DNA of 64,000 bases from an uncultured virus (IMG/VR IMGVR_UViG_3300031578_009156) (lineage: Duplodnaviria; Heunggongvirae; Uroviricota; Caudoviricetes): IMG/VR virus record IMGVR_UViG_3300031578_009156. The stretch is one strand, 5' to 3'. Shown piece after piece: positions 4,121-61,284 of this stretch (position 1 is the first letter of the stretch; each line of letters begins with the position of its first letter). The position numbers and the translations under genes are program-made. The notes under the pieces are model-generated. The model searched no databases, was not told the origin of the DNA, and was given only the letters and a program-made list of their open reading frames with translations.

Positions 4121-6082
4121 ATGTCAGGGGATTACATCAAGTTCGGGAGCTTAATACTAAACGGTGAGGGGGCCGTAGGCCAGACAGGGGCAATTTACAC
4201 AGTCACGCGGGCGGGCGGCCTGGGTGGCTTGCCGCGGCCCCGTGTAGTCATCACGCAACTGGTGGGCGTGGGCGGTGCAGTTCTCAGTGAAGCAGACGAT
4301 GACGTGCGCGTGGTTGCACTGGAAGGGGAGGTACACGCTCCGTCTCACGACCTCCTGATGGATGAGTTGGAGCGGTTCAAGTACGAGATCAGCACCCAGC
4401 GTGGGGAGCAGTGGCTTTACTGGACGCCCGAAGGGCAAACGGCGCGCAAGATCGGGGCGGTTCTGCAGAACGACGGGGCGGTAGCCCTGGATACCGAAGA
4501 TGATACTACCGCGATTTTCAGGCTTGAATTTCTATGCGCTGATCCCTACTGGTGGTCCATCAGTTCTACCACGGCTTCCAAGTCGGTGACTGCATCGGGG
4601 CAAACTCTCAGCGTGACCAACGACGGGACGGCGTACTCAGAGCCAGTCATCCGCATCACACCCACCAGCATTAAGGCCAGTGGATATTCCTACAAGCGGT
4701 GGCTGGCAATCTACAACCGATTGTTGACCCGTGCGCTCACAGACTACCCGCTCGAGGTGACGACACAAGCGGGAACGGGCTTTAACCATGCAGCGTTGGT
4801 GGGAGCAGGTCATGCACAGGCGGACGGGGATGACTTGCGCGTGGAAGTGGACGGCGTAGAGGTTGACCGATGGCTCGATGGTCCCAATACCGCAACCTGT
4901 AAAGTCTGGGCTAACTTGACGTACCAGGTCGGCCAAAGCGCGATATTGGCCGAAACATTCGTATCGGGTGCCTCTGTATCGAGCATCAGCGTAGATGACA
5001 CGAGCGGCTTCCCCTCATCTGGCATTCTGTATAACCCCACCAGCGGGGAGGCGTTCACTTACACGGCGCGGGATGATGTGCTCGACCGTTTCACAGGCAT
5101 AACACGGGCAGACAAGGGCACGACGGCGGCCACGAACACCATCGGGCAAGCCCTGTGGTGGGTAGAGCACGACGTCTGGCTACTCTACGGCAACGCCGCT
5201 GCGACTGCTCCAACTGTGGACGATAATTACAAAGCGGCTTTCGAGTTGGACCACTCTACAAACACGAGTTGGGTCTACGAGATTTTTGGAGAAGATGACG
5301 GGCTGAGGGTTGCATCGTGGGTGTACCGGTATAGCGCGGGCGAATTACTCGCACAGTATACCGCAACGCGGTACACCACAGCAAATCCCTGGGAAGTCTT
5401 GGGTATGTACCATGGTGCGGGCGACGCGGGAGAGTACCAGCAAATGTATTTGTACAACCCCTGCGGTATCCTAAGTGCAAATTTTATGAGCGGCGAAACC
5501 TGGATGGATTATCCTGGCCTTCCAAACCCGCATGATGCCAGGATAGAATCGAGCAGGAACGGGGCTATCTGGCCTGCAGAGTACAATATTCCTGACCCAT
5601 CAGGCGCGCACGTCTATACTGCATGGAGCAGGGACGAAACTCTAACCGATGATTCATTTTTCGTTTCGTTGTATCTCGGCTCGGTTGGTAATCCTGTGAC
5701 TGTTGAGGCAGGCGCTTGCACACTAACCCTGAACTCCGCCGGCACTCCTGGGATTGTCTTGGTGGATGAGCAAGGTAGTTACGACCTTGGTATTACGCTG
5801 ACGATGGTAGAAGATGGGGCGGACGGGGCGGCTATACAGATACAATTCACGATAGATCTTAACGAAACCCTCGAGATAGACTGCGGGAATCGTACCGTCA
5901 CCTATCTAAAGGATAACAGCAACCAGTTCCAGGCGCTCACCCTCCAATCCCCGTCCTTGCGCAATTACTGGTTCAGGTTGCCGGGGCACTGGAATGGGGG
6001 CGAGACGGTTACTTTCAGATACGATGAGACGGGCGTGGCGGGGGTGACACTGGCTGTCATATACTACGATCGTTGGCTGTAG
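4121..6082 (+). CDS. Distal tail (Dit-like) protein with inserted domain
   Basis: Follows tape measure; FLCADPYW and VTNDGTAYSEPVIRI motifs; ends YYDRWL. Confidence 0.75.
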   Translation: MSGDYIKFGSLILNGEGAVGQTGAIYTVTRAGGLGGLPRPRVVITQLVGVGGAVLSEADDDVRVVALEGEVHAPSHDLLMDELERFKYEISTQRGEQWLYWTPEGQTARKIGAVLQNDGAVALDTEDDTTAIFRLEFLCADPYWWSISSTTASKSVTASGQTLSVTNDGTAYSEPVIRITPTSIKASGYSYKRWLAIYNRLLTRALTDYPLEVTTQAGTGFNHAALVGAGHAQADGDDLRVEVDGVEVDRWLDGPNTATCKVWANLTYQVGQSAILAETFVSGASVSSISVDDTSGFPSSGILYNPTSGEAFTYTARDDVLDRFTGITRADKGTTAATNTIGQALWWVEHDVWLLYGNAAATAPTVDDNYKAAFELDHSTNTSWVYEIFGEDDGLRVASWVYRYSAGELLAQYTATRYTTANPWEVLGMYHGAGDAGEYQQMYLYNPCGILSANFMSGETWMDYPGLPNPHDARIESSRNGAIWPAEYNIPDPSGAHVYTAWSRDETLTDDSFFVSLYLGSVGNPVTVEAGACTLTLNSAGTPGIVLVDEQGSYDLGITLTMVEDGADGAAIQIQFTIDLNETLEIDCGNRTVTYLKDNSNQFQALTLQSPSLRNYWFRLPGHWNGGETVTFRYDETGVAGVTLAVIYYDRWL

Positions 6083-21970: not shown

Positions 21971-22171
21971 ATGACTAGGATATATACGGAAAATAGGTAT
22001 GCCGATGTCGCCCATGCCGTTGCCGAGGAAATCGGCAAGGCGGGATGGGCCCTCAACGGGGAGCCCTATAATCTGGTGGACAAAGACGATGTGCTCTGGA
22101 TCTCAGAGCGCGCCCTGAGAGGTCAAGACCTCTCAGACATAGAGTGGCATGATGAGGATAAGGCGGCCTGA
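21971..22171 (+). CDS. Hypothetical early protein
   Basis: GGAGG RBS; ends EDKAA. Confidence 0.65.
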   Translation: MTRIYTENRYADVAHAVAEEIGKAGWALNGEPYNLVDKDDVLWISERALRGQDLSDIEWHDEDKAA

Positions 22172-22174
22172 GCC

Positions 22175-22212
22175 GCCGCCGTAACCCACTGAGACCAGGT
22201 CCCAAGCCCTGG
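22175..22212 (+). ncRNA. 5' half of a second twister-like ribozyme (truncated)
   Basis: UAAC and CCAGG-UCCCAAGC-CCUGG present; 3' GAGGG strand missing. Confidence 0.45.
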
Positions 22213-22217
22213 CGGCG

Positions 22218-22481
22218 GGATTCGTCCCCGTCGCTCAGAACGGCGGTACGGTCACATTCCGCTCGGTGCACCAGGCACAGGCAAATGCCCACTACCGCCA
22301 GGTGACATTCGATGGCATTGGACCAGTTGTGCTCGTAAATGAGGCAGCCTTCCGCGGCTCAAAGCCAGGCCGCGTGGTCGGCGGCGAGTTCAAGGTAAAC
22401 GAAACCCGCGCGAGCCGCGAGGCCGCGCAGGCAAAGCGAGAATTGGCGCAGGCAAAGCGCCTGTATCCTGCCGCGTTTTAG
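22218..22481 (+). pseudogene. Probable 5'-truncated early gene
   Basis: Protein-like frame GFVPVAQNGGTVTFRSVHQ..YPAAF* with no RBS or start. Confidence 0.4.
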
Positions 22482-22699
22482 GTATCCTCCCTGCTCCGTT
22501 CGTGACACCGCCACAATGCGTCTGGCTGGGCGGCGGCCTCATCCTGGGGTAACAAACCGCAGGAACAGCTCGACGGCGGCGCAGGGACATTCTCGGCTGG
22601 CTTGCCTCAGTTGTCGGGGCGAGGGATGGAACCAGCGCCAGACGCCCGTAACTGGCACACAAGATGAGGGCTGCGGCTCGTATAACGCAGAGGAGAACT

Positions 22700-22876
22700 A
22701 TGAGCAAGAAGCGTGGTAAAGAGCGAGTACGGGAAGGCAAATGCATCACCTGTGGTGAATCTATCACGGTGTTCTACCGCAACGGCAGGGCATACCGCAC
22801 CAGATGCGCTTGCCAGAACGAGGGGATGGGAGGGCGGAACCGCCAGAACTATCCTGGCATTGATGCGATTACCTAA
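22700..22876 (+). CDS. Small zinc-finger protein
   Basis: CITC..CAC; GAGGAG RBS. Confidence 0.6.
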   Translation: MSKKRGKERVREGKCITCGESITVFYRNGRAYRTRCACQNEGMGGRNRQNYPGIDAIT

Positions 22877-23025
22877 GATGGTGCGAAAGGAGGCACCTGC
22901 CACCCGCGCCAGGGAAAGCCTGGCGGACAATCAGAAGTCGCCCGACAGGGAACGGGCGCATGGCACACACGCCCGCTCCAGGCCGGCAACCTGGGGCGGG
23001 GATATTCAGCAATGAAAGGAGAAAG

Positions 23026-23229
23026 ATGGGCAAGTCTGTAGGTCCATGCAACAAGTGCGGGACTGTCAATAATTCCAACGAACGTAAGACCTGCCAGAAG
23101 TGCGGGACAATCCTGCCCTTCTGGCGCAACACCATCGCCAACTACACGCAGGCAGAGGAAGACGCACGCCGCCGATGGGGCGGCTATTGCGATCTGCTGG
23201 GGCGTCAGGTTCCATACGGGCGTTCCTAG
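23026..23229 (+). CDS. Small zinc-ribbon protein
   Basis: CNKC..CQKC; AAGGAG RBS. Confidence 0.65.
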   Translation: MGKSVGPCNKCGTVNNSNERKTCQKCGTILPFWRNTIANYTQAEEDARRRWGGYCDLLGRQVPYGRS

Positions 23230-23297
23230 CAAGGCCAGGGCGACACCGTGCCCGCTTCGGCAAAGTGGTGTGGCAGCGCGGAGAGCCGCGCCAACCT

Positions 23298-23371
23298 GGG
23301 GGTGAAAAGGTGAGCCTGCGCGAGGGCCTGGAGCCAGCGCAGAAACGCGGGATCGTTACCCGCCACCTCCA
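23298..23371 (+). ncRNA. 74-nt tmRNA-TLD-like / alanine tRNA-like RNA
   Basis: Acceptor GGGGGUG/CACCUCC-A with G3-U; T-arm GCGGG-AUCGUUA-CCCGC; no D stem. Confidence 0.65.
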
Positions 23372-23397
23372 CAATCGGCAGATCCGCCTCCAACTCT

Positions 23398-23430
23398 AAA
23401 GCCCAGCCTCACTATGAGGCTGGGCTTTTT
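23398..23430. terminator. Bidirectional terminator between early cluster and integrase
   Basis: AAAGCCCAGCCTCA-cta-TGAGGCTGGGCTTT. Confidence 0.85.
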
Positions 23431-23439
23431 GCTTTTCCC

Positions 23440-24327
23440 CTACAGCCGCCAGTTATCTCCTGGACTCGTCCGCTTCGCCCGCTCCTCTACATCCTCATCA
23501 CTGAGCGCAGCGAGATACCCCTGCGTCACGTCTATGCTCTCGTGTCCCAGCAGGTGCTGCACGCTGATCAGGTCCATGCCGTGCCGCAGGTGCTCGATCG
23601 CGGCGGTATGGCGGAACTGGTGGGGGTAGACGTGGAAACCAGCGAGCCGACCGAGGCTACCGCAGACACTGCGCACCGTCCGCCGCGAGAACGGGTAACC
23701 ATCGTTCGACAGGAACAGGTGATCATCCCCGACCTGGGCTGGCTCGGGGCGCTCCTCTTTGACGTACAGCCACAAGGCGGACAAGGCACGCTTCCCCAGG
23801 TAGACGTACCGCTGCTTCTTCCCCTTACCCTCTACTTGTACCCGTCCGCTTTGAAAGTCCACGTCGCACAACCGAACACCCGCAATCTCGGAGGCCCGTG
23901 CCCCCGTATCGAGCAGGAACAGGACCACGGCGCGGTTGCGGCGCTTCAGCCGCGTGTGGTCGGTGGCGGCCACCAGGGCGGTTATCTGATCGTGGGTGAG
24001 GGATTTGATCTTCTGGCTGGGTAGCTTGGGCGCTGGGACTGCGCGGGCGGGGTTGACCTCGGCCAGCGCGACCTCTGGCGATACCAGCCAGGCATACAGG
24101 GAGGAGACAACCGCCAGGTGCCGGCGCACCGTGTGACGGGACAGGCCACGGTCGAGGTGGAAGGCCAGGTAACGGCGCACGTCATCGGCGGTCACCTCCC
24201 TGACGTCACAGGCAGCGCGCCACTGCAGGAACTGGCGCAGCATCACGGTATCGGTCTTGATCGTCTCGGGACTGGCGCGGGTGGCTTTGAACAGGAGATA
24301 CCCCTCGATTGCGTCCGCTAGGTTCAT
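23440..24327 (-). CDS. int: Tyrosine recombinase / integrase
   Basis: LDTGARASE (R), GKGKKQR (K), HQFRH (HxxR), LLGH..TQGY. Confidence 0.93.
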   Translation of the reverse strand: MNLADAIEGYLLFKATRASPETIKTDTVMLRQFLQWRAACDVREVTADDVRRYLAFHLDRGLSRHTVRRHLAVVSSLYAWLVSPEVALAEVNPARAVPAPKLPSQKIKSLTHDQITALVAATDHTRLKRRNRAVVLFLLDTGARASEIAGVRLCDVDFQSGRVQVEGKGKKQRYVYLGKRALSALWLYVKEERPEPAQVGDDHLFLSNDGYPFSRRTVRSVCGSLGRLAGFHVYPHQFRHTAAIEHLRHGMDLISVQHLLGHESIDVTQGYLAALSDEDVEERAKRTSPGDNWRL

Positions 24328-24374
24328 CTTGTCTACCCCCTCCCTCTAGCTGGGATCCTCAGAATGTAGCGCAC

Positions 24375-24396
24375 AAAAAACCGCCCGTAGGCGGTT
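24375..24396 (-). terminator. Terminator between the attP half-tRNA and int
   Basis: Minus strand AAACCGCC-tac-GGGCGGTTTTTT. Confidence 0.7.
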
Positions 24397-24463
24397 TCGG
24401 TGCTCTACACTACCCGTAGAGCCTGATTGTAGTGCTCAAATGGAGGGAATGCCCTCGACCGGT

Positions 24464-24505
24464 CAACCCCATTGTAGCGCGCTAGCCAAGCTGCGCCACG
24501 CCCCG
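24464..24505 (-). tRNA. 5' half of tRNA-Pro(GGG) = probable attP core
   Basis: CGGGGCGTGGCGCAGCTTGGCTAGCGCGCTACAATGGGGTTG; stops just after the anticodon loop; adjacent to integrase. Confidence 0.85.
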
Positions 24506-24539
24506 ATTGCCGCACTACACTGTGCCTACGTTGGAGTGT

Positions 24540-24567
24540 AGTATAGCAGAAGGCCAGAAATTGTCAA
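24540..24567 (-). promoter_or_regulatory. Promoter feeding the tRNA fragment
   Basis: TTGACA-16-TATACT on the minus strand. Confidence 0.75.
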
Positions 24568-24679
24568 GTGGCAAGAACGGAGTGTAGCGCGCTAAAGGCA
24601 CGGGCGGCATTGCGGCAGCACGGATCGGGACAGGGAGTGCCCGTCATGCGCCTGGAGCACCGCCGCCCACGTTGCCTGC

Positions 24680-24771
24680 TAACACGTGTTACCACGAATC
24701 GTGATACCTTATACGCCTATCCCCCAGTCGTTGCTCACGTTGCCGCTAACACGTGTTACTAACGCGTGTTA
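24680..24771. repeat. Three palindromes TAACRCGTGTTA
   Basis: 24680-24691, 24747-24758, 24760-24771. Confidence 0.8.
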
Positions 24772-24909
24772 GCACATGACTGGGGAATCTTGCGATGCTG
24801 GGCAAACTCAGGATCACGGACCGCCACCAGGTGCCAGACGGGTATAGGCAATCGCCCCCACTTTAAGAATTTCTTTACCACTAATTATTAAAAGCGTGGT
24901 ATAATTGCA

Positions 24910-26315
24910 ATGCTTCCCCCCCCCAATGCCAGACGGGAGGGGCATCCCGCTCCCTCTCTCTTCGTCCTGGCTCGGACCAGGATATAGAGGGCTGCGGGCA
25001 GACACTTGACAAAAGCAAACATCCGTGCTATATTATACTTATGCACAGCACAGAGTCGGTTGTCATCAAGATACTTAACCCTACACAGTGGAAGCGCCAA
25101 TGGCTTGACGATACTGCCCGCGCCTTCAGTCAGGCCGTCCAGTTTGGCCTTGATGCCGCACGCGAGGACCACACCGACAACCGCACCAGATTGCACAAAT
25201 TGGTCTACCGAGCGGTGCGAGATCAATTTGGCCTTTCTGCCGATTATACCCGCATGTCTGTCAATGCCGTTGTGTCGCTTGCCCGTTCCTACTATGGGCA
25301 ACGGCGCTCCAGGCACATCAAGCGAGTCTCGTTTCCCAAGGTCAATGGCTCACAAGGTATTGGCCTGGGTATCCACTCTTATCGCATCGTCCAAGACAAC
25401 AACCGTCTTGTCCTACGCGTTTCGACTGGACAGCGCGGGCACTATGTATGGCTCGTGTTATGCGTTCCTACCAAGTATCGCGACCGCCTCTTACTCGCCA
25501 AGGGAGATGCTAAACTATTCAAGCGCGGCAATGACTGGTATGTTATGTTGCCCATCCGCGTAACCCCCACGCCTGCCGTCTGTGACGGTGAATCTACGTT
25601 CATCGGCGTTGACCTGGGTATCGTGAGACTGGCAACCGTTTCTACGCCAGACGGCATCACCTTTTTCAGCGGCAAAGAGGCGCGACATAGACGGGAGCAC
25701 TCTGCTGACTTGCGCGGGCGTTACCAGCGCCACAATCGGCTCGATCGCGTCAAGGCGCAAAAGGGCAAGGATACCAGGTATATGCGGGATCTGAACCACA
25801 AGATCAGTGCCACCCTCGTTGACATTGCCCTGCGCTATGACAGGCCAGTGATCGTCTTGGAGCGGTTGGACGGCATCAATAACCGACTCAAGGGCAGCAA
25901 GCGGTTCAAGCGCATGGTATCCTCGTGGACCTTTCGGCAACTGGTGACCTTCATCGAGTACAAAGCCGCTCGCTACAGCATTCCAGTTGTGTTCGCTGAT
26001 CCTCGCGGTACGTCGCGCACCTGCCCGAAATGCGGGCACAGCACACGCGCCAACCGTCCGAATCAATCTCGGTTTCGATGTGTGGCGTGCAACTACCAAG
26101 GCAATGCCGATGCAGTTGCCGCCATAAACATCGCTGCCCTTGGGCCTGGTGTCCTTGGGCAAGAGCCGACTGACACGGCTCGGGCTTCGGCCCAGACTGA
26201 ACCCGTTGGGGTTCGGCCCGATGTGGTCAAGGTTGATACGATTCTTTCGTGTCAGCAAACCACAACCTCCAGTTCCTTGCAGGAACCTCCCCGCTTTGGC
26301 GGGGAGAGGATGTCA
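24910..26315 (+). mobile_element. IS200/IS605-family tnpB-only element (left end approximate)
   Basis: tnpB; right-end hairpin CTCCCCGC-tttg-GCGGGGAG then GGATGTCA; hairpin-rich left region; no tnpA. Confidence 0.7.
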
Positions 26316-26354
26316 GGGTTAACCCCGTACTCTCCAGGGTATAAGGGATTGTGA
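25041..26354 (+). CDS. tnpB: TnpB RNA-guided nuclease
   Basis: GVDLG, IVLERL, CPKC..CVAC, NADAVAAINI; leaderless after TTGACA-17-TATATT. Confidence 0.92.
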   Translation: MHSTESVVIKILNPTQWKRQWLDDTARAFSQAVQFGLDAAREDHTDNRTRLHKLVYRAVRDQFGLSADYTRMSVNAVVSLARSYYGQRRSRHIKRVSFPKVNGSQGIGLGIHSYRIVQDNNRLVLRVSTGQRGHYVWLVLCVPTKYRDRLLLAKGDAKLFKRGNDWYVMLPIRVTPTPAVCDGESTFIGVDLGIVRLATVSTPDGITFFSGKEARHRREHSADLRGRYQRHNRLDRVKAQKGKDTRYMRDLNHKISATLVDIALRYDRPVIVLERLDGINNRLKGSKRFKRMVSSWTFRQLVTFIEYKAARYSIPVVFADPRGTSRTCPKCGHSTRANRPNQSRFRCVACNYQGNADAVAAINIAALGPGVLGQEPTDTARASAQTEPVGVRPDVVKVDTILSCQQTTTSSSLQEPPRFGGERMSGLTPYSPGYKGL

Positions 26355-37209: not shown

Positions 37210-38158
37210 CGGGAAATCGGTTCTCATCACGGGTGGCACGGGCACGTTCGGTCACGCGATGACCAAGGCGATCCTGGAGCAGGCAGAACCGAGGCGGCTG
37301 ATCATCTTCAGCCGAGACGGTCTAAAACAGGAGACCATGCGGCGGACCAGGTTCCCACAGTCGTGCATGCGGTGGATGGTTGGCGATGTGCGGGACCTGC
37401 GCCGACTGCATCAGGCATTTGAGGACGTGGACGTAATCTTTCACGCTGCTGCGCTGAAACAGATACTCGCTTGCGAATACAACCCGTTCGAGGCGATAAA
37501 GACGAACATTCTGGGATCCATGAATGTCATCGAGGTCGCCATAGCGCAGAACGTGGGAATGGTGGTCGCCATAAGCTCAGACAAGGCTTGTCAGCCTCTC
37601 AATTTGTATGGTGCAACGAAGATGTGCATGGAGAGGCTGTTTATCAACTCTACTGCCTACGTTGGCAAGCGCGCCACGGTCTTGGGCCTGGTGCGATACG
37701 GGAACGTAGCAGGCTCACGGGGCAGCGTGGCGCACGTGTTCGATTCACAGAAGGGGACAGGGGAGGTTGCTATCACCGACCCTCGGATGACGCGCTTCTG
37801 GTTCACAATCGAGGAAGCGGTCGCATTCACCCTCGCCCGCCTGGAGGACATGACGGGCGGGGAGATATTCGTACCCAAGATTCCCAGCGCGCGGATCGTA
37901 GACGTGGCGGAGGCCATTGCTCCTGGCTGCAAGGTACGCACTGTCGGGGTTCGACCAGGGGAGAAGATGCACGAAACTCTGATTGCACACGGGGAATGTG
38001 CCATTGACTGCGGCTCTTACTACATTATTGCCCCCTCTGGCTCGCTTACCAGCCTCGGCATGGGCACTACCGAGTACCGCAGTGATACCAACTCGGAATG
38101 GGTTACGGTGGAAGAAATCAGGAGGTGGTGGAGTGAGTACAAGGATTCCCTACAGTAG
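37202..38158 (+). CDS. pseB: UDP-GlcNAc 4,6-dehydratase (inverting)
   Basis: ITGGTGTFG, HAAALKQ, SSDKA..NLYGATK, RYGNVAGSRGSV, MTRFW, RPGEKMHE. Confidence 0.9.
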   Translation: MLNGKSVLITGGTGTFGHAMTKAILEQAEPRRLIIFSRDGLKQETMRRTRFPQSCMRWMVGDVRDLRRLHQAFEDVDVIFHAAALKQILACEYNPFEAIKTNILGSMNVIEVAIAQNVGMVVAISSDKACQPLNLYGATKMCMERLFINSTAYVGKRATVLGLVRYGNVAGSRGSVAHVFDSQKGTGEVAITDPRMTRFWFTIEEAVAFTLARLEDMTGGEIFVPKIPSARIVDVAEAIAPGCKVRTVGVRPGEKMHETLIAHGECAIDCGSYYIIAPSGSLTSLGMGTTEYRSDTNSEWVTVEEIRRWWSEYKDSLQ

Positions 38159-39218
38159 GCAGCAAATCACCGAGGATGACGTGCAGGCCGTTGCGTGTGC
38201 TCTCCAGGAAAGCCTGATCACGACCGGCCCTCACGTCAAGGAGTTTGAGCGTGCCTTCGCTGAGAAGGTCCAGGCGGGGTGCGCAGTGGCAGTGAGCAGC
38301 GGCACAGCGGCCCTCCACACGGCGATGGCCGCCATAGGGGTCGGGCCAGGGGATGAGGTCATCGTTCCCGCCATGACGTTCGTAGGAACGGCCAACGCCG
38401 TCCGCTACGTGGGGGCTACGCCCGTCATCGTGGATGTGAACCCCGACACCCTGCTGATTGATCCCGCTTGCGTAGAGCGGGCAATCACCCGCAGGACAAG
38501 GGCTATCGTGGCCGTGGACTACGCGGGGCAGCCGTGTAACTACGCTGGACTGTGGGCACTCGCCCGTTCGCACGACCTCTACCTCGTAGCAGATGCGGCC
38601 CACTCTCTGGGCGCGGTCTATGGTGATGCGCCAGTCGGCTCCCTGGCTGATGTTACGTGCTTCAGTTTCCACCCCGTCAAGCACATCACGACGGGGGAGG
38701 GGGGCATGGTTACTACCGATAAGGCCATACTGGCTAATCTCGCCAGGTCCTTCCGCAGCCACGGTCTGGACGAGAACAGGGAGATGGTCTGGGAGGGCTA
38801 TAACTACCGCATCACCGATTTTCAGTGTTCCCTTGGCAGCAGCCAACTGGCGCGGCTCGATGAGATCATGGAGGCGCGGCGCGGCATTGCACGGGCATAC
38901 GACAAGGCATTTGCTGGTACTGCGGTGCGGCCGCTCGGCCTGGCTCCCAGAGCGCGACACTCCTATCACCTGTACGTGGTGCGCGTGCCAAACCGTGACA
39001 AGGTTATGGCACGATTACGTAGCAAGGGCATTGGCGCGCAGATTCACTACCGCCCCGTCCACATGCATCAGTTCTACAGGTTCCTGATGGGAACGGGCAC
39101 GGGCCTCTGCCCTGTAGCCGAGCAGGCTTACGAGGAGATTCTGTCCATCCCCGTGTACCCTGGTCTGTTCCTGGATGATCAGCTTTTCGTGGTAGATGAA
39201 CTCCTGGAGGCAGTCTGA
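38133..39218 (+). CDS. pseC: DegT-family sugar aminotransferase
   Basis: [36 protein letters not shown]. Confidence 0.88.
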
Positions 39219-39961
39219 TGAACGTGGTGGCAATCGTTGCGGTTCGGCTGAACAGTTCGCGGCTCCCTGGCAAGGCCTTGATGGACATTGCGGGCGAGCC
39301 GATGCTGGCGCGGGTGGTCCACAGGCTGGAGCGGGCGCGGACCCTGGACAGGGTGGTGGTAGCTACGGTGGGCTGTGACGAAAACCTGCCCATCGTGGAC
39401 CTGTGCCGTGAAGAGGGGTGGGACACCTATGTCGGTACGCCCGACACATACGAGGACGTTCTGCTGAGGTGCTACCGCGCGGCCGTGGCGCGCAAAGCGG
39501 GCGCATTCGTGCGGGTCACCGTTGACTGCCCCCTGATCGAGCCGACGGTGGTGGACCTGGTGGTGTCTGCTTTCTTAGCGGAGCGGCCAGACCTTGCCAG
39601 CAATACCATACACCGCACCTGGCCGCGCGGGCTGGACGTATCTGTCATTGCGATTGAGGCTCTGGCGGTAGCAAACCGTCTGGGCAAAGGACCGCATCAC
39701 AGGCACCACGTTACCGCCTATCTCTACGAGTACCCTGACAAGTTCAATCTTCTGGCGGTGACGCGGACGGGCATGGACGCAAGTGGGCACCGCTGGACGG
39801 TGGATGAGCAGGCCGACCTGGTGTTTGTGCGGGAGGTTTACAAGAGGCTGGGCGGGCGCAACGACTTCAGTTGGCTCGATGTGTTGGGCCTGATAGAGGA
39901 TAACCCCGAGTTGCAGCGGGTTAACGCGCACGTGATTCAAAAAGGAGCGAAGGACCTATGA
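39218..39961 (+). CDS. Cytidylyltransferase (SpsF/PseF-like)
   Basis: [29 protein letters not shown]. Confidence 0.85.
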
Positions 39962-40944
39962 GACCAGTTGTGATTCGCGCAGACGGGGCGAACGGAATTG
40001 GGTTGGGGCACACCCGCCGTTGTGTGGAGATCGGGCGAACGCTCAAGGAGCGCGGCGCGGACGTGCTGTTTGTGTCGGCGGCCAACCCCGTGGTAAATCC
40101 GATACTGGCAGAATTCGGGCGCCCGATGTCAGAGGTGAGGAGCGAAGGGGCCGCACTGGAATATCTTGCTGGCTCGTTCCCTGACTCCATAGTCCTACTG
40201 GACACTCCTTACCCATACTCAGTAGCAGAGATCGAGCGGCTGAAGGGTGCTGGTTGCTCGGTCTTCATGATGCAAAACGAGTGTCCTGGAATGCTTGCCA
40301 GCGATTACGCAATCTTCCCAGATGACCACCACACCGCACCGAGCACCGGATGGGGTGATACGTTCCCGTTGATGGGGCTCGACTACGTGATCATCCCACG
40401 GATCGCTGTGTGGACGGCATGGACGGCACTTCACAGTGAAGCACAGGACCGCGTCGCCGTAGTGGCCGGCGCTAGCGACCCCTGGCACATCTTGCCACAG
40501 ATGGCAAGGTTGTTCTACAAATTGGATGACTATGAGGTTGTGTTTCTGGAGGGACAGGACACCGACTATCACGAAGAGATGGTGGGCCTGTGCAAACCTG
40601 AGCGCATGGCCTCGGTGCCGTTCAATTATGTTGACCTGTTCTCTGCCAGAATGGTGGTCACCGTGTTCGGGTGCACGGCATACGAACTGATTTATGCGGT
40701 GCGGCCTTTCCTAGCACTGGGGCCAAACGAGAGGTACGCGCGTTATGCCAGGACCCTCTCCCAGCGAACCCACGCCCTGAATGTTCTCGGCTGGCCATGC
40801 ACCACGGATGACCTGGAAACAGCACTGTTAAGCCTCACGGCTTTTTACTGGGATATGACGGCAGCCCAACGAGGGCTGATTGACGGCGCAGGCGCTGAGC
40901 GCATTGCGGACCACATTCTACAGGAGGCTAGACGTGATAGTTGA
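39958..40944 (+). CDS. pseG: PseG/SpsG-like UDP-sugar hydrolase
   Basis: [30 protein letters not shown]. Confidence 0.75.
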
Positions 40945-41413
40945 CGGGTACGAGCAGTACGGCAGGTACTACGAGGACTTTAACATTGGTGATGTATTCT
41001 GTCATTGGCCCGGGCACACGGTCACCGAGGGGGAGCACTCCCTTTTCTGTGCTTTGACAAGAAACGACCACCCCGTGCACAGCGATCAGGTGTACGCCGC
41101 CAGCGCCCGCCACGGGCGCATTCTGGTAGTGGGCACTTTCGTGTTCTCCCTGGTCGTGGGCATGACCGTGGGGGACATCAGCGGGAAGGCGATTGCTAAC
41201 CTGGGGTACGAGAAAGTTACCCACGAAGCTCCTGTTTTCGTGGGTGATACTCTCTACGCTGAGACGGTCGTGGTGGACAAGCGACAGACCAGCAAGGCTG
41301 GCATTGTGACCGTGGAGACACGGGCAACGAAAACGAAGCGGATAGGTGAGCACCCCAGTGTTCTGGTTCTGACGCTGCGCCGCAAAATCTTAGTTCCGAG
41401 GAGGGAGCAATGA
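40934..41413 (+). CDS. MaoC-family dehydratase
   Basis: GRYYEDF, NDHPVHSD, PVFVGDTLYAE. Confidence 0.88.
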   Translation: MIVDGYEQYGRYYEDFNIGDVFCHWPGHTVTEGEHSLFCALTRNDHPVHSDQVYAASARHGRILVVGTFVFSLVVGMTVGDISGKAIANLGYEKVTHEAPVFVGDTLYAETVVVDKRQTSKAGIVTVETRATKTKRIGEHPSVLVLTLRRKILVPRREQ

Positions 41414-42294
41414 CACGGAGAGTTCCATACCCGATGAGAAGTCTACTGTTCGTGCCAGGCCACAACGAGCGGTATTTGCGCTCTGCAGCGGACTCTGGCG
41501 CGGACGTCCTCTTGCCCGACCTGGAGGACTCAGTTCCCCTGGCATGCAAGGCGCAGGCACGTGACACGGTGGCCCAGTGGATGCAGTCTTGCTGTGCTGG
41601 TCTGCATGTGTTCCCACGGGTGAATGGCGGTCCCGACGTGCTCCCAGATGTGCTGGCCCTGGCAAAATGTGGTGTGGACGGGTTCATGCTCCCTAAAGCC
41701 TACAGGGGCGAGAACGTCTTGCTGTTCGACAAGTTGCTCAAGATCGCGGAGGTGGAAAACGGGCTGGCTCCTGGCTCCCTCCAGATTATTCCCTTGATCG
41801 AGACCTGCTCGGCAGTCTTGCACGTGCAAGAGATTTGCGAGGCGTCTCCCCGCGTAATCGCCGTGGCTTTCGGGTGCGAGGACTTCGTGGCCGACCTCCA
41901 CGGGACGCACGACCTGGAGGGCAAGGTCTTGGAGGTCCCCCGTGCGCTCATTGCACTGGGTGCCCGGGCGGCCGGCGTGATCCCGATAGACACGGTGCAC
42001 GTCGAGGTCAACGACCTGGCCGACCTGGAGCGCAACGCCCGCTACGCCCGTGGCCTGGGCTTCGAGGGCATGTTGGCCCTGCACCCCAAAGAACTCCCTA
42101 CCATTCACGAGTGTTTCACGCCAGACGCCTGGGAGGTCGAGCGGGCGCGGGGAATGCTGGCCCTCGCTGCCGAAGCTGAGCGGGCGGGCAAGGGAGTGGC
42201 GATAATGGAGGGGCGGTTCATCGGGCCGCCGATGGTGCGGGCGGCAAGGCACACGCTCGAACTGGCAGAAGTCATAGAGAGGAGAGGCAAGTGA
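41410..42294 (+). CDS. CitE/HpcH acyl-CoA lyase family
   Basis: RSLLFVPG, DLEDSV, PLIET, FGCEDF. Confidence 0.88.
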   Translation: MTRRVPYPMRSLLFVPGHNERYLRSAADSGADVLLPDLEDSVPLACKAQARDTVAQWMQSCCAGLHVFPRVNGGPDVLPDVLALAKCGVDGFMLPKAYRGENVLLFDKLLKIAEVENGLAPGSLQIIPLIETCSAVLHVQEICEASPRVIAVAFGCEDFVADLHGTHDLEGKVLEVPRALIALGARAAGVIPIDTVHVEVNDLADLERNARYARGLGFEGMLALHPKELPTIHECFTPDAWEVERARGMLALAAEAERAGKGVAIMEGRFIGPPMVRAARHTLELAEVIERRGK

Positions 42295-42959
42295 AGAAAC
42301 TGGTGATCGTGGGAGGCATCGGCAACGGTGCTGTGGCGCTGTCCACGGTGGTGGACATCAATAATTCGGAGGACGGGTACAATACCTGGGAGGTGCTCGG
42401 CTTCCTGAATGATAGTGCGGACAGGGCCGAAGTGCATGGCTTCCCTTGGCTGGGACCGATAGAGAGCAGTTCTGTGCAAAGGCTGCGTGATCGCAAGGAC
42501 GTGTATTTCTTGTGGACCCTGTTTTCCACGCGGTTGCGCCAGGATATGGTGGTCAGGCTCCAGGGCCTGGGCATTGAGCGGGAGAAGTGGGCGACTCTCA
42601 TTCACCCTGCTGCCGTCGTGTCGCGCTTCGCGGAGATTGGGCGGGGCGTAATCATGCATGCGCAGTCGTCCGTTGGGCCGGCAGTCTCACTGGGCGACCA
42701 CGTGCAGATGTACAACCAGACCTACGTGGGCCACAACACCCGCGTGGGTAACTACTCTTTTTTGGCGAATGGTGCCCACATCAGCAGTTTCGTGACCTTG
42801 GAGGAGGGGGCATACCTGGGCATGTCGTGCGCCGTCCGTGAGTTCGTCAGGGTCGGCCAGTGGGCCACTGTTGGCATGGGGGCGGTCGTGCTGGAGAACG
42901 TCGAGCCACACACTACCGTGGTGGGGGTTCCAGCCAGGGCAATAGAGAGGAGAAGTTAG
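42291..42959 (+). CDS. NeuD/PglD-family acyltransferase
   Basis: GFLND, TLIHP, hexapeptide repeats, VVGVPAR. Confidence 0.85.
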   Translation: MKKLVIVGGIGNGAVALSTVVDINNSEDGYNTWEVLGFLNDSADRAEVHGFPWLGPIESSSVQRLRDRKDVYFLWTLFSTRLRQDMVVRLQGLGIEREKWATLIHPAAVVSRFAEIGRGVIMHAQSSVGPAVSLGDHVQMYNQTYVGHNTRVGNYSFLANGAHISSFVTLEEGAYLGMSCAVREFVRVGQWATVGMGAVVLENVEPHTTVVGVPARAIERRS

Positions 42960-43787
42960 ATGGCCGTTACGATCATCGCTGAAGTTGGATCGAACTGGGG
43001 CGGGAGCCTGGATCGTGCGCTCGATTACGTGGAGGCCGCGGCCATGGTTGGCGCGGACGCGGTTAAGTTCCAGACCATCCGCATAAACCTGTTGTATGCC
43101 CGAGGCTACGAGCCGCACTTTCAGATCCCAGAATTGCCCGATGACTGGCACTTCGAGTTGAAAGCCAGGGCGGACAAGCTCGGGATCGAGTTCGTGTCTA
43201 CCCCGTTCTACTTGGACGCTGTGGACCTCTTAGAGCGCGTGGGGGTTAAGCGGTACAAGATCGCTTCGGGCGACATCACCTTTCGCCCACTTCTGCAGAA
43301 GGTGGCAGAGACTGGAAAGCCACTCCTGTTGTCAACGGGTGCCTGTGACATGAACGACATACGAAAGGTAGTCAGCTTCCTCAAGGATTGCTATAGTTGG
43401 AACAAGGTGACCTTGCTCCATTGCGTGACCCGCTACCCCGCATCTGTGGACGAAATGGCCCTGTGGAGCATGCAGTATCTGCGCGACTGTTTTGGGTGCC
43501 CGGTCGGCCTCTCGGACCACTCCCTGAGCGCGGCGGTATCTATTGCAGCGGTTGGCATGGGGGCCTCGGTGATCGAGAAGCACATCACATTCGACCGTCG
43601 TACACCTGGCCCCGACCACCCGTTTGCTACGACCGTGGACGAGTTCGCGGACCTGGTTCGTGACATTCGTTCAGTGGAGGCGGCGTTGGGGGTTTATGAC
43701 AAAGCCCCCTCCCCCTCCGAGCAGGGAACTGCAGGAAGAATCAGGCGCAACCCTAACGACTGGCTACGTCCGGAGGTGCGAGAATGA
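42960..43787 (+). CDS. NeuB/PseI nonulosonic acid synthase (no C-terminal SAF domain)
   Basis: IIAEVGSN, ADAVKFQ, KIASGD, LSTG, LHCV..YP, GLSDHS, IEKH. Confidence 0.92.
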   Translation: MAVTIIAEVGSNWGGSLDRALDYVEAAAMVGADAVKFQTIRINLLYARGYEPHFQIPELPDDWHFELKARADKLGIEFVSTPFYLDAVDLLERVGVKRYKIASGDITFRPLLQKVAETGKPLLLSTGACDMNDIRKVVSFLKDCYSWNKVTLLHCVTRYPASVDEMALWSMQYLRDCFGCPVGLSDHSLSAAVSIAAVGMGASVIEKHITFDRRTPGPDHPFATTVDEFADLVRDIRSVEAALGVYDKAPSPSEQGTAGRIRRNPNDWLRPEVRE

Positions 43788-44419
43788 CACGACCACTAGA
43801 GCAATGGAAAGGCACGTTTGGCGATGAGTACACGGCGCGAAACTCCGCCGAGGTGTGGTTGACGGGGGAGAAACGAGCCTCCGCTGTAGCAGTGTGGGAG
43901 CGGATGCTCAGAGAGGTATGGCCTGGACTCAGCAGCATCATGGAGATTGGGGCAAACATCGGCCTAAATCTTGGGATATTGCGCGAACTGCTCCCCTATA
44001 CTCCCCTCTATGCGATTGAGCCAAATTACGTGGCCTGGATGACCCTGGTTGACCGCTATGCGGGATTGACTGCTTGGAATGAGGCAGTCGAAGAGTGGGA
44101 GCCGAAAGAAGGCACCTTTGACCTGGTGTTCACGTCTGGCGTGCTGATCCACATTCCGCCAGAAAACCTCCTGGCGGCCACAGACAAGATCGTCCGCGCG
44201 GCTGGCAGGTACGTGCTGTGCAAAGAGTACTTCGATGTGAAGCCGACCATGATCCCGTACCACGGCCAGGACAACCTGTTGTTCAAGCGCGATTTCGGTT
44301 CCTGGTACCTGGATCACTATCCCGAATTGCACTGCATAGATTACGGCTTCTGGTGGTCGCGCCTGGAGCCGTACTGTGACAATTCCACCTGGTGGTTGTT
44401 CGAGAAAGGAGCAAGATGA
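43784..44419 (+). CDS. Pseudaminic-acid-associated methyltransferase
   Basis: WKGTFGDEYTARN, EIGANIGLNL, GVLIHI, LFKRDF. Confidence 0.85.
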   Translation: MTRPLEQWKGTFGDEYTARNSAEVWLTGEKRASAVAVWERMLREVWPGLSSIMEIGANIGLNLGILRELLPYTPLYAIEPNYVAWMTLVDRYAGLTAWNEAVEEWEPKEGTFDLVFTSGVLIHIPPENLLAATDKIVRAAGRYVLCKEYFDVKPTMIPYHGQDNLLFKRDFGSWYLDHYPELHCIDYGFWWSRLEPYCDNSTWWLFEKGAR

Positions 44420-45531
44420 GGTACTGCAAGAAGTGTGTTCAACCCGATACACGTCCTGGCATTGTGTTCGATGACGAGGGCGTATGCATGGCGTGCCGCG
44501 TGGGCCACCAGGAAGTGGACTGGGATGCGCGCGAGGCGGAATTGCGGGACATTGCGAGCTGGGCCAGGGAACAGGGCGCGACGTGGGATTGCGCCATTGG
44601 CGTGTCGGGCGGTAAAGACAGCACCTTCCAGGCTCTGTACGCGCGCAACCGCTTGGGCCTGCGGGCATTGCTCGTCAATTGCACGCCAGACCCCATCACC
44701 GACGTCGGTGTGGCTAACAGGGAGAATCTCTACCACCTGGGGTTCGACATGATCCAGATCAGACCAAACCCCCTCGTCACGCGGGCCTTGGTCACCCGCG
44801 CATTTGAGGATTACGGCAACCTTGTCAAACCTACTGAGTACCCTCTTTATGCGGTGACATGGCAAGAGGCTCTTATGCGGCATGTTCCTTTGGTGATACA
44901 GGGGGAGAACCCCGCCGAGACCCTGGGTATTGGAGGCGGCCTGTCAACGGGTGGTGATGCTTCAGACATCCGCCACCACAGCACGATTGCGGGAGGTGCC
45001 AAAGCATGGGTGGGTGATGGCGTGACGATGAAGGACATGGCATTCTACGAGATCCCACCCGTGGAGGAGATTGAGCGCGCGGGAATCAGGTCCGTGTGGC
45101 TGGGCCACTACGCCAGAGAGTGGAGCAGAACGCACAACACCGAGTTCGCCGTCTCCCACGGCCTGCGCGGTCGCCCCATGCACAACCCTGCCCACGCGGG
45201 ACGGCTCAGCGAGCACGGCAGCGTTGACAGCGACTTTCAGATCGTAAACCAGATGCTCAAATACTACAAGTTTGGGTTCGGGTTTGTCACCGATGAGGTG
45301 TGTTACTCAATCCGCGAAGGGGCAATGACCCGTGAAGAGGCCATTGAGCTGGTACAGAAGTACGACGGGCGCTGTGACGCGGTGTACATCGAGCAGTTCT
45401 GTGATTACATCGGCTACACCGCCAGCCGATTTTGGAAAGTGGTAGACAGGTGGGTTAGTGAGAGCCTGTTCGAAAAGCAGGGCTACCGCTGGGTGCCCAA
45501 GTTTACCGTAGGGGAGGACTTTAATGAATGA
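44416..45531 (+). CDS. N-acetyl sugar amidotransferase (WbuX/PseA-like)
   Basis: CKKCVQPDTRP, GVSGGKDS, YYKFGFG, MTREEA. Confidence 0.88.
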   Translation: MRYCKKCVQPDTRPGIVFDDEGVCMACRVGHQEVDWDAREAELRDIASWAREQGATWDCAIGVSGGKDSTFQALYARNRLGLRALLVNCTPDPITDVGVANRENLYHLGFDMIQIRPNPLVTRALVTRAFEDYGNLVKPTEYPLYAVTWQEALMRHVPLVIQGENPAETLGIGGGLSTGGDASDIRHHSTIAGGAKAWVGDGVTMKDMAFYEIPPVEEIERAGIRSVWLGHYAREWSRTHNTEFAVSHGLRGRPMHNPAHAGRLSEHGSVDSDFQIVNQMLKYYKFGFGFVTDEVCYSIREGAMTREEAIELVQKYDGRCDAVYIEQFCDYIGYTASRFWKVVDRWVSESLFEKQGYRWVPKFTVGEDFNE

Positions 45532-46516
45532 GGATAGCATTCGACCTGATAGCCTGCGGCCCGACCTGGCTGCAGCAGCCCAGCGAGATAGGGAGTGGCT
45601 GTTGGCCCGTGAGGCTGAGTTCGTCTACGTGGACTGCCCCGTGTGCGATACGTCTAGCAACACGAACCCCTGGCTCATCACTGATGAATTCCAATATCGC
45701 AGGTGCTCGGACTGCGGAACGCTCTTTATCAGCCCTCGGCCAACCCAAGAACTTCTGAATGCCTACTATGCGCGGTCGGAGATTGCTCAATGCTGGTGCG
45801 AGGAAATCTACCCCGCAGCGGAAGATACCAGGGCCGCCGAGATACACCGACCGCGCGTTTATCGCATAATCAGTCTGGCGCGCTCCCTGGGGGTGCCATG
45901 TGACATCCTCGTGGACATCGGCGCGGGGTACGGAACGTTCTGCGCCGAGGCTGCAAGGCAAGGATTCCGCTGTATCGCCGTGGAACCTTCACCATCTCTG
46001 GCTGGTGCGTGTGCCAGTAGAGGGGTGGACACACGGGCCTGCTCCTTGGACAAAGCAGACCTCCCGCAGGATTCCGCCTCAGTGGTCACAGCATTTGAGG
46101 TGATCGAGCACGTGGCTGACCCCAGGTGGTTTCTAAGGACCTGTTACAGGACGCTTGCCCCTGGCGGCCTGCTCGCCCTCACTTGCCCCAACGTTGACGG
46201 GTTCGACGTGCAGGTGCTGGGTGCGGCCTCCAGTACCATAGGCCACGAACACTTGACCTACTTTACCCCTGAGTCACTACCCACCCTGCTTGAGGCTGTT
46301 GGGTTTGAGATCGTAGAGGTGGCGACACCTGGCAAACTCGACCTGGAACTCGTCCACAAGGCGGTGGTGGCTGGCGCGATAGTGACTCCATGGATCAGGT
46401 ACCTGGTCGTGGACAGGTGGGACAAGATTGACCGAGAGGCGGTTCAACAATGCCTGGCGGACAACCTTCTATCATCCCATCTGTGGGTGGTGGCGAGGAA
46501 GCCGAAGGGGGACTGA
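45524..46516 (+). CDS. Zn-ribbon + SAM methyltransferase
   Basis: CPVC..CSDC..SPRP; DIGAGYG; FEVIEH. Confidence 0.85.
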   Translation: MNEDSIRPDSLRPDLAAAAQRDREWLLAREAEFVYVDCPVCDTSSNTNPWLITDEFQYRRCSDCGTLFISPRPTQELLNAYYARSEIAQCWCEEIYPAAEDTRAAEIHRPRVYRIISLARSLGVPCDILVDIGAGYGTFCAEAARQGFRCIAVEPSPSLAGACASRGVDTRACSLDKADLPQDSASVVTAFEVIEHVADPRWFLRTCYRTLAPGGLLALTCPNVDGFDVQVLGAASSTIGHEHLTYFTPESLPTLLEAVGFEIVEVATPGKLDLELVHKAVVAGAIVTPWIRYLVVDRWDKIDREAVQQCLADNLLSSHLWVVARKPKGD

Positions 46517-58748: not shown

Positions 58749-59933
58749 CTGCTCTCCCCTCTAAAGAGGGGAGCTTCTAGGGCTTACACCCAAGCTCGCC
58801 AGTCCGCGAGCCAAAATGTTCAGAGACGCATTTAAGTCTCTGTCCATTTCCAAACTGCAAAAAGGACAAGAGTGGACACGAACGGACAATGCTTTTTCGA
58901 CAATCTGACCACAGCGAGAACACATCTTGGTGGTGTTGCGCGGATCGACCAGCACACACGAACGACCGGCCCATGCTGCCTTGTACGTCGTGTACTGTAC
59001 CAGTTGGCCCCACGCCGCATCCGAGATGCTCTTGTTCATGCTGCGCCAGTTGCCATCTTGCATGTCCTGGATATTCAAGTCCTCGAAGACCACGATCTGA
59101 AATTCATCTACCAGGCGTCTGCTGAGTTTGTGCGCAAAGTCGGCACGCCGGTTCGCAATGCGCTGGTGGATGTGTTGAATTACCCGCTTGCATCGGGTAT
59201 GCTCAGGTGTTCCCTTTTCGCACTTGGAGAGCTTGCGCTGTGCCTTGGCAAGCGCCTTTTCGTCCTTGCGGAAAAAACGCGGGTTGGCGATCATCTCGCC
59301 GGTGGACAGGGTCGCGAATTTTTCAAGTCCCAGGTCGATGCCAATGACATTGGGAACTGGGGGCAAAGGAATGGACTCAACCTCACAGGAAAAGCAGGCA
59401 TACCAATTACCCAAGGCGTCGCGCCTGACAGTGAGCGTCTTGATTTTACCCTCAATAGGGCGATGCAATCTGATCTTGACGTTGCCGATCTTGGAAAGAT
59501 AGAGTCGTTCATCACTGGTGAGCTTGAATCCGCTCTGTGGATAGGTGAAAGAATCATAGCGGTCCGCTCCGCGAAACCGAGGATAGCCGGGGTTCTCTCC
59601 GCTTTCTCTCATGCGCCTGAAAAAGTGCTGGAGTGCCAGATCGACACGGGTTTGCGCATTTTGCAGACACTGCGAGAAAGCGTTCGAGAGTTCAGGCTTT
59701 TCCTGTTTCCATCTGGTGAGAAGTTTGTTTGTGTCGAACAGAGACAACGACATCTGTTGTTCTTGCCATGCACCACGCCGCACCTCAAGAGTCTTATTGT
59801 AGACCCACCGACAAGCGTCGAGAGATACCTGCATGGCTTTGCGTTGGGCTCGGGTTGGATAGAGTCTGAACCGGAACGTCTTCATGGCTCTATTGTATCA
59901 CGTATTAAGGCAGGTGTCAAGTGCTTAATATCA
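58745..59933 (-). mobile_element. IS605-group tnpB-only element with resolvable ends
   Basis: Right-end hairpin CTCCCCTCT-tt-AGAGGGGAG..TCAC; left-end hairpin TATTAAG..CTTAATA after TTAC; removal restores the flanking gene overlap. Confidence 0.85.
58761..59885 (-). CDS. tnpB: TnpB RNA-guided nuclease
   Basis: FRFRLYPT, GIDLG, VFEDL, CSRC..CPFC, DRDLNASLNI. Confidence 0.95.
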   Translation of the reverse strand: MKTFRFRLYPTRAQRKAMQVSLDACRWVYNKTLEVRRGAWQEQQMSLSLFDTNKLLTRWKQEKPELSNAFSQCLQNAQTRVDLALQHFFRRMRESGENPGYPRFRGADRYDSFTYPQSGFKLTSDERLYLSKIGNVKIRLHRPIEGKIKTLTVRRDALGNWYACFSCEVESIPLPPVPNVIGIDLGLEKFATLSTGEMIANPRFFRKDEKALAKAQRKLSKCEKGTPEHTRCKRVIQHIHQRIANRRADFAHKLSRRLVDEFQIVVFEDLNIQDMQDGNWRSMNKSISDAAWGQLVQYTTYKAAWAGRSCVLVDPRNTTKMCSRCGQIVEKALSVRVHSCPFCSLEMDRDLNASLNILARGLASLGVSPRSSPL

Positions 59934-61166: not shown

Positions 61167-61284
61167 GGGGGTGCTTGGCTTCGACGGGGGGCGGTGTGGT
61201 TGGTAGGTGAAAAGGCCCATTGAACGACACCGAAGGCCACGGATTGACAAACTCCGGACATGGGTTCAATTCCCATCACCTCCA
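61167..61284 (+). ncRNA. 118-nt mini-tmRNA (tRNA-like domain only)
   Basis: 5' GGGGGUGCUUGGCUUCGACGGGG; 3' CUCCGGAC-AUGGG-UUCAAUU-CCCAU-CACCUCCA; G3-U pair; about 60 nt between the ends. Confidence 0.8.

Follow-up and report, generated by a model that had tools for sequence, protein, structure and literature searches.

The 74-nt RNA encoded at 23298-23371 (+) of the window, which is the whole 64,000-nt stretch of DNA from an uncultured soil caudoviricete analysed here (IMG/VR IMGVR_UViG_3300031578_009156), is a genuine but divergent relative of the TLD-only RNAs, tag-less mini-tmRNAs named for the tRNA-like domain (TLD) of tmRNA. We refer to it as copy 2, since the same phage window carries a canonical TLD-only RNA, copy 1, at 61167-61287 (+). 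By Rfam's measure copy 2 is neither an ordinary tRNA-Ala nor a tmRNA, and comparison with its sequence relatives indicates that it is under structural constraint and not decaying. It is a rare variant of a known, abundant, little-studied phage RNA family. On balance we consider it probable that copy 2 is a genuine RNA gene under structural constraint, that it diverged from the phage TLD-only RNAs as a rare offshoot, and that it is functional.

Structure and family membership of copy 2

The features of the two RNAs and of the surroundings of copy 2 are:

22700-22876 (+), znA, a 58-aa basic CxxC...CxC zinc-ribbon ORF, 78% identical to the ORF (2649-2828) beside the copy-2 ortholog on the phage contig L028
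23026-23229 (+), znB, a 67-aa CxxC...CxxC zinc-ribbon ORF with the RBS AAAGGAG, the last protein gene before copy 2
23237-23292 (+), hairpin-rich leader between the last ORF and copy 2, 80% identical to a segment of L028
23298-23304 (+), 5' strand of the acceptor stem, GGGGGUG, with G3 of the G3:U70 pair at 23300
23305-23315 (+), unpaired D-loop analogue AAAAGGUGAGC, keeping GG at 23309-23310 and lacking the tmRNA UUCGAC
23316-23342 (+), central hairpin with outer stem CUGCGC (23316-23321) / GCGCAG (23337-23342), MFE fold
23325-23327 / 23333-23335 (+), inner stem GGC/GCC within the 15-nt hairpin interior, MFE fold
23343-23346 (+), linker AAAC, where tmRNA has GGAC
23347-23363 (+), T-arm GCGGG-AUCGUUA-CCCGC, with loop bases 1 and 5 swapped (A...U for U...A)
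23364-23371 (+), 3' strand of the acceptor stem, CACCUCC (23364-23370), and discriminator A (23371)
23398-23428 (+), intrinsic terminator with a 14-bp stem and T-rich tail, closing the + strand gene block
23440-24327 (-), XerC/XerD-like tyrosine recombinase, its stop codon 69 nt beyond the 3' end of copy 2
61167-61287 (+), copy 1, a canonical TLD-only mini-tmRNA of 121 nt with a 62-nt insert (Rfam tmRNA, 314 model positions skipped)
61203-61215 (+), degenerate 5'-half-like stretch GUAGGUGAAAAGG in the copy 1 insert

Copy 2 thus reads GGGGGUG-AAAAGGUGAGC-CUGCGC-(15 nt)-GCGCAG-AAAC-GCGGG-AUCGUUA-CCCGC-CACCUCC-A, and in its MFE fold a 7-bp acceptor stem containing the G3:U70 pair stacks with a T-arm of 5 bp and a 7-nt loop; the central stem has 6 bp, and none of the 18 stem pairs is broken. 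The central hairpin occupies the place of tmRNA helix P2 or the tRNA anticodon arm, and CCA is not encoded, the bases after the discriminator A being CAA. A preliminary description of this DNA had listed the same elements at these positions and drawn an identical structure, with no D stem and a 15-nt loop closed by CUGCGC/GCGCAG; sequence and fold agree with it throughout, as does its observation that the acceptor stem GGGGGUG/CACCUCC-A is common to both copies, which we checked against the RNA that Rfam detects at 61167-61287. The plan of tmRNA is followed in part, by the acceptor with G3:U70, A73, the 5-bp T-stem and the 7-nt loop, and there is no mRNA-like domain, the RNA being 74 nt in total with a central hairpin of 27 nt. 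The plan of the mini-tmRNAs (60-92 nt; acceptor, unpaired GG, one hairpin, 4-nt linker and T-arm) is present in copy 2.

ARAGORN called no tRNA or tmRNA gene in the window, and the Rfam tmRNA (RF00023, gathering score 47 bits) and tRNA models gave no match to copy 2 even at E <= 10 in a 351-nt search (23150-23500), so that copy 2 is neither an ordinary tRNA-Ala nor, by Rfam, a tmRNA. The preliminary description had named an ordinary tRNA-Ala fold with an anticodon arm as the case that would speak against its TLD-like assignment, and neither ARAGORN nor the Rfam tRNA model found one. At gathering thresholds, Rfam recognises one RNA in the window, copy 1 (tmRNA, 65.9 bits). Of two covariance models, R1 was built from 8 canonical members retrieved via the ends or T-loop of copy 2 itself, and its score for copy 2 (54.6 bits, E 5e-9) is inflated because these 8 training sequences were retrieved in that way. 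R2 was built from 96 phage TLD-only RNAs, retrieved with a pattern independent of copy 2 and aligned with R1; it matches copy 2 over model positions 1-76 of 76 with 36.3 bits (E ~1.4e-5) in a 114-kb search in which the top ordinary tRNA reached 25.8 bits. The earlier assignment of copy 2 as a TLD-like RNA and not an ordinary tRNA-Ala is upheld by these null calls together with both model scores.

Under R2, copy 2 scores 14-18 bits below canonical members (50-55 bits), that is, below the RNAs with canonical motifs (copy 1, 52.8; L026, 54.5; L035, 50.7 bits), and its ortholog L028 and remote homolog L011, described below, score 38.0 and 27.6 bits. The R2 alignment confines the loss to two places, where copy 2 has a shorter UGAGC for UUCGAC (3-nt gap, AGC for GAC) and AAAC for GGAC. 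Thus the UCGAC and GGAC motifs are absent from copy 2; their invariance among the 96 RNAs was imposed by the search pattern, and both are also upper-case in the Rfam consensus. UUCGAC and GGAC form a G.A/A.G/C:G junction in the Rfam tmRNA structure.

Several observations concern copy 1. Its insert stretch GUAGGUGAAAAGG is a near-copy of the 5' end of copy 2 with 10 identical bases, R1 aligns 61203-61284 as a second, nested TLD (37.6 bits), and copy 1 may have originated by fusion or duplication of two TLD genes. A weak permuted-tmRNA look-alike lies at 61254-61371 (23.5 bits, E 0.006).

Relatives, conservation and the swapped T-loop

Copy 2 has an ortholog on another phage contig (L028) and a remote homolog on a 243-kb metagenome contig (L011), and so the outcome against which the preliminary description had guarded, a lack of homologs, did not arise. 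The ortholog is 92% identical to copy 2 over 86 nt, compared with 80% in the homologous flanks; 5 of 75 columns differ between the two RNAs, and so few differences (5 or fewer) would be expected with a probability of 0.0012 at the 20% divergence of the flanks. Two of the differences make up a compensatory change in the acceptor stem (U6:A67 to C6:G67), two lie in the apical loop, where one adds an inner pair, and the fifth is a base inserted into the unpaired stretch near the 5' end, while the outer central stem CUGCGC/GCGCAG is unchanged. The DNA common to the window and L028 comprises only the RNA, the znA gene (80%) and the 56-nt hairpin leader (80%), which are arranged in a different order in the two; none of the other L028 ORFs matched the window. 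The homolog on L011 is 68 nt long and has the same architecture and the same AUCGUUA loop, its T-stem GGCGG/CCGCC showing two compensatory double changes relative to copy 2. Because it lies downstream of a strong + strand terminator and encodes CCA, it is a gene of its own.

In nine members of the family every acceptor and T-stem cell (108 of 108) is paired, and double changes occur at 6 of the 12 pairs. Because the search patterns required G3:U70, A73 and the leading Gs (GGGG), these features are conserved by construction in L028 and L011, and their conservation is no argument for an alanine identity. We found the copy-2 subtype in only three lineages, namely the window, L028 and L011; a further metagenome contig (L019) matches the window at 100% identity along 2.1 kb and, being the same phage, adds no comparative information. 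The preliminary description had argued from the presence of two copies in one genome that the RNAs form a selected class. Selection is supported, although by L028 and L011; the argument from two copies in one genome is weak by itself.

These comparisons bear directly on whether copy 2 could be a drifting, non-functional relic of a TLD-only gene without the SmpB-binding core. The two most conserved tmRNA motifs are gone, the subtype is rare and an intact canonical copy 1 exists in the same phage, all of which would be expected of a relic, but a drifting sequence would hardly keep all of its stem pairs, be more conserved than the neighbouring coding DNA with a compensatory change, and show the same architecture in three separate lineages. 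We therefore regard decay as quite improbable. A chance fold in an intergenic region was also considered, given that GC-rich DNA readily folds and that the folding energy of copy 2 (-34.3 kcal/mol) corresponds to a z-score of only -2.07, with 5 of 200 shuffles equally stable; a loose scan for acceptor plus T-arm shapes was likewise non-discriminating (27 matches in the window against 2-18 in 20 shuffles). Full-length matches to R1 and R2, the ortholog and the remote homolog all oppose this explanation, which we rejected on the L028 ortholog, its flank comparison and the full-length R2 match, and which is scarcely credible.

The unusual T-loop of copy 2 is found in other phage RNAs as well. AUCGUUA occurs in ARAGORN-called full-length phage tmRNAs on fragments of large phages (L073, L083 and L088, standard; L074/L085, permuted) and also in phage tRNA-Ala genes, and since such genes carry it, the odd loop is a working variant of phage tmRNAs and tRNAs and not decay. 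More generally, swapped T-loops with A1 and U5 (AUCGUUA, AUCGUAA, AUCGUCC, AUCAUUA) are found in phage tmRNAs and, among phage tRNAs, in a minority; carriers include tRNA-Ala genes (L024, L029, L031, L072, L075, L077), a tRNA-Phe gene (L090), the tmRNAs L073, L083, L088 and L074/L085, and the TLD-only RNAs L026 and L035, and the RNAs neighbouring these carriers keep UUCRANN. Among distinct loops that start with A, 6 of 7 have U at position 5, an association that looks like covariation of the 54:58 pair. Our literature search found no paper on an A54/U58 T-loop. The swap may affect TrmA/TruB modification, or may reflect evasion of a host factor.

Searches for further relatives used several patterns. 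The first, made of the first 13 and last 8 bases of copy 2, matched 3 loci in viral contigs, including L002 and L003, clean 79-nt TLD-only RNAs (Rfam tmRNA 56.4 and 51.3 bits), and 16 loci in metagenome contigs, consisting of 7 canonical TLD-only RNAs, 7 loci without a T-arm, L019 and L011. The second, built on the AUCGUUA T-loop, gave 19 loci in viral contigs: L028, L026, L035, 9 without stems and 7 tRNA-like RNAs, the last sitting in phage tRNA arrays and called by ARAGORN as tRNA-Ala(UGC) in 3 of the 7 cases (L024, L029, L031). L026 and L035 are bridging forms that combine the AUCGUUA T-loop with canonical UCGAC/GGAC (Rfam tmRNA 46.0 and 41.2 bits), and L035 ends in the same 25 nt as L028. 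Pattern 3, confined to the T-arm and 3' end, matched 20 loci in viral contigs, none of them a new copy-2-type RNA. In another viral scan stems were present in 3 of 27 loci, all from known records, and in an unbiased viral scan one of 24 distinct matches was of copy-2 type, L028 again. The exact 25-nt 3' part of copy 2 had 0 matches in viral contigs, and blastn against cultured phages returned no match for 22000-25000 and only partial matches (E >= 0.2) for 23290-23380.

The parent class, in contrast to this rare variant, is abundant. A pattern independent of copy 2 (GGGG, TCGAC, GGAC, TTCNA and CTCCA, with a 12-42 nt middle) identified canonical TLD-only mini-tmRNAs at at least 120 loci in viral contigs (L091-L210). 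Among the matches listed, 119 of 120 have a perfect 7-bp acceptor and 5-bp T-stem, and there are at least 97 distinct sequences of 62-92 nt. In the loci examined with ARAGORN, every mini TLD-only RNA was missed by that program.

The contigs of the relatives hold other features. On L011 the setting is defence-island-like, with a DUF3800 gene (669-1493) and a CAP12/Pycsar-type TIR effector gene (4286-5047, -) flanking the RNA, and lower-GC, defence-type genes downstream of it. Upstream of the copy-2 ortholog, at a distance of ~420 nt, L028 encodes a 258-aa protein (1306-2082, +) that matches the NCBIfam 'TIGR-Tas system RNA-guided endonuclease' at 155 bits (cut-off 100) and, weakly, IS110. In each of two tandem ~195-nt RNAs on the same contig (2933-3127 and from ~3282), a tRNA-like acceptor stem, GCACGGG/CCCGUGC, and the canonical T-arm GUAGG-UUCGAUU-CCUAC enclose a large branched insert (fold z = -2.15). 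The 5' regions of the two are 84% identical and recur at an interval of 350 nt, and neither Rfam nor ARAGORN recognised these RNAs.

Genomic setting and alternative explanations

Copy 2 stands between the last ORF of a + strand gene block and its terminator, which begins 27 nt downstream, in keeping with the preliminary description that had placed it just before the operon terminator; weak sRNA-terminator look-alikes appeared near the terminator in the Rfam search. Contigs from three metatranscriptome runs (X7-X9) cover ~22467-23191, ending at 23147, 23157 (adapter) and 23191, and none spans 23204-23538, a gap that is uninformative on expression because standard-library contigs rarely hold 74-nt structured RNAs. 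Of the genes upstream, znA is the only protein gene common to the window and L028 loci; it matched no Pfam or PHROG family, and its relatives among 5.8 billion proteins were itself plus one 75%-identical protein.

The position of copy 2 at the end of the block would also suit a tRNA punctuation signal, comparable to the plant-mitochondrial t-element, that recruits RNase P/RNase Z to set the 3' terminus of the mRNA upstream, in which case the 74-mer so released would be functionless. No sigma-70-like promoter of its own was found for copy 2, and the hairpin-rich leader is conserved in L028, where its counterpart stands before a different tRNA-like RNA. The L028 ortholog and a 195-nt tRNA-like RNA moreover have a common 33-nt 3' trailer (94% identity), as if both were processed in the same context. 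A bare cutting signal, however, need not keep the GG, the exact T-loop and the hairpin architecture across lineages; the L011 homolog follows a strong terminator and encodes CCA, as a gene of its own; and the parent family is, in the available parts of the published accounts, a tmRNA derivative with a proposed trans-acting role. We judge punctuation as the sole role of copy 2 to be improbable.

A feature that the preliminary description had missed is that copy 2 lies directly 3' of the recombinase gene, and because the two adjoin, a role in recombination has to be weighed. Copy 2 might be, or double as, the attP or dimer-resolution site of the adjacent tyrosine recombinase, with the T-arm inverted repeat GCGGG-7 nt-CCCGC as its core and a host or resident RNA gene with the same T-loop as its target. 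The 3' end of copy 2 faces the recombinase gene, 69 nt from the stop codon, and attP adjoins int in lambda-like genomes. According to the available text of PMC10865867, tRNA and tmRNA genes are common attB sites, attP usually carrying their 3' half, and L011 is a gene with an identical 7-nt loop on its 243-kb contig, with lower-GC defence-type genes downstream. On L028, however, the closest tyrosine recombinase is 4.2 kb away from the ortholog and only 32% identical to that of the window, and the 43 ORFs that surround ten family loci within 2.5-3 kb include no integrase. Nor does an attP site constrain more than the 3' part, yet the 5' strand of copy 2 co-varies with its 3' strand. Among the jumbo-phage records with AUCGUUA tmRNAs an integrase is present in 1 of 5, ~45 kb away, and a DNA-run contig crosses 22409-23530 of the window unbroken at a depth of 280. 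The combination of a XerC/D-like enzyme with a ParM-type partition gene also indicates that the phage may be a non-integrating plasmid prophage. A recombination site is thus, in our assessment, very improbable.

Relatives of the recombinase were not found in viral contigs, and in genome contigs there were 2 loci (31% identity, Bacteroidota). The window as a whole is a temperate-phage-like genome with tail genes, a ParM-type actin, an FtsK-like ATPase and cI/Cro-like HTH genes, and also encodes DnaN, DnaB, methylases and three TnpB genes. The latter (OrfB_IS605/Cas12f-like) lie at 25041-26354, 58761-59885 (-) and 61679-62878, one of them starting ~390 nt after copy 1. A sugar-nucleotide block at 37983-46516, with genes for a DegT aminotransferase, a cytidylyltransferase, NeuB, an HpcH aldolase, a hexapeptide acetyltransferase and methyltransferases, suggests a phage-borne nonulosonic-acid pathway.

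Proposed role and relation to known systems

Returning to the favoured reading of copy 2 as a functional RNA gene, we start from its observed sequence, fold, family homology and conserved structure, and from these infer how it would be expressed, processed and charged and what it would target. Copy 2 would be transcribed as the last element of the + strand gene block, ahead of the terminator (23398-23428), excised by RNase P and 3' trimming, and supplied with CCA by the host CCA-adding enzyme; its G1-G2-G3:U70 and A73 make charging by alanyl-tRNA synthetase likely. It retains the acceptor/T-arm half together with the GG in the D-loop analogue, the UUCGAC/GGAC core having been remodelled to AGC/AAAC. 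Because that half is kept and the SmpB-binding core is remodelled, copy 2 would act through the acceptor/T-arm half on the translation or ribosome-rescue machinery of the host, competing for AlaRS, EF-Tu or processing enzymes.

The G.A-A.G-C:G junction formed by UUCGAC and GGAC is, according to the SmpB-TLD crystal structures, the SmpB-binding site. As this core is absent, titration of SmpB by copy 2 appears doubtful, and the caution of the preliminary description, which had called SmpB binding less certain for this copy, fits both the missing motifs and the failure of the Rfam tmRNA model to match at E <= 10. Copy 2 would thus probably not act as has been proposed for canonical TLD-only RNAs such as copy 1. 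That proposal comes from mycobacteriophage DS6A, which, in the available text of PMC4131195 and PMC11915505, carries a 'TLD only' tmRNA; a molecule similar to it is described there as strongly inhibiting tmRNA, perhaps via SmpB titration.

A more far-reaching reading, which we offer as speculative and on the whole unlikely, is that the copy-2-type RNAs of the window, L028 and L011 form an SmpB-independent class of their own, phage alanine acceptors descended from tag-less mini-tmRNAs; they would have preserved the elbow and the chargeable acceptor/T-arm half and rebuilt the SmpB-binding junction. Such RNAs may have a phage partner of their own, for which the small basic zinc-ribbon protein znA is a candidate because no other protein gene is co-inherited with the RNA in the two phages. 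If this were true, a phage with copy 1 and copy 2 would attack the charging and rescue machinery of its host at two points.

DS6A was the only phage that our literature search found named with a 'TLD only' tmRNA, and a paper on huge phages mentions tmRNAs and not TLD-only forms. Tag-less mini-tmRNAs, in print from one cultured phage, are abundant here, and copy 2 represents a branch of the family without the motif thought to explain its action by SmpB titration that is nevertheless, by comparison of its relatives, structurally constrained. The coexistence of copy 1 and copy 2 in one genome allows a clean comparison of what such RNAs do for a phage.

Among the RNAs compared here, copy 1, L002, L006 and L010 have the same overall plan as copy 2 and an identical acceptor, GGGGGUG/CACCUCC-A, the AAAAGG start being common to copy 2 and L002, L003, L006 and L010; however, copy 1, L002, L006 and L010 score 51-66 bits with Rfam tmRNA and keep UUCGAC/GGAC and UUCRAUU, which copy 2 lacks. 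The T-arm and acceptor 3' strand of the L074/L085 tmRNAs are identical over 25 nt to those of L028 and differ from copy 2 at 1 of the 25, although these and the other full-length AUCGUUA tmRNAs (L073, L083, L088) are unlike copy 2 in having tag peptides called by ARAGORN and a length of 345-374 nt. The tRNA-like attP cores and phage tRNA genes at attP, in the available part of PMC10865867, likewise place a tRNA-shaped sequence beside a tyrosine recombinase gene, whereas in copy 2 conservation extends over the entire fold, 5' strand included, and the position beside a recombinase is not kept in the ortholog. Jakobid mitochondria and Mallomonadaceae plastids have CDS-less tmRNA derivatives of ~65 nt (PMC11915505, available text) which, compared by description only, resemble copy 2 in having no tag frame; they differ from it in being organellar and working with imported SmpB. 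With respect to the DS6A type, compared through the available published descriptions and metagenomic members and not through the DS6A sequence, copy 2 differs in having no UUCGAC and GGAC, in its AUCGUUA loop and in being missed by the Rfam tmRNA model, but it has the family likeness of a phage-borne RNA of 60-90 nt with a G3:U70 acceptor, one hairpin in place of the mRNA-like domain, a T-arm and no tag frame.
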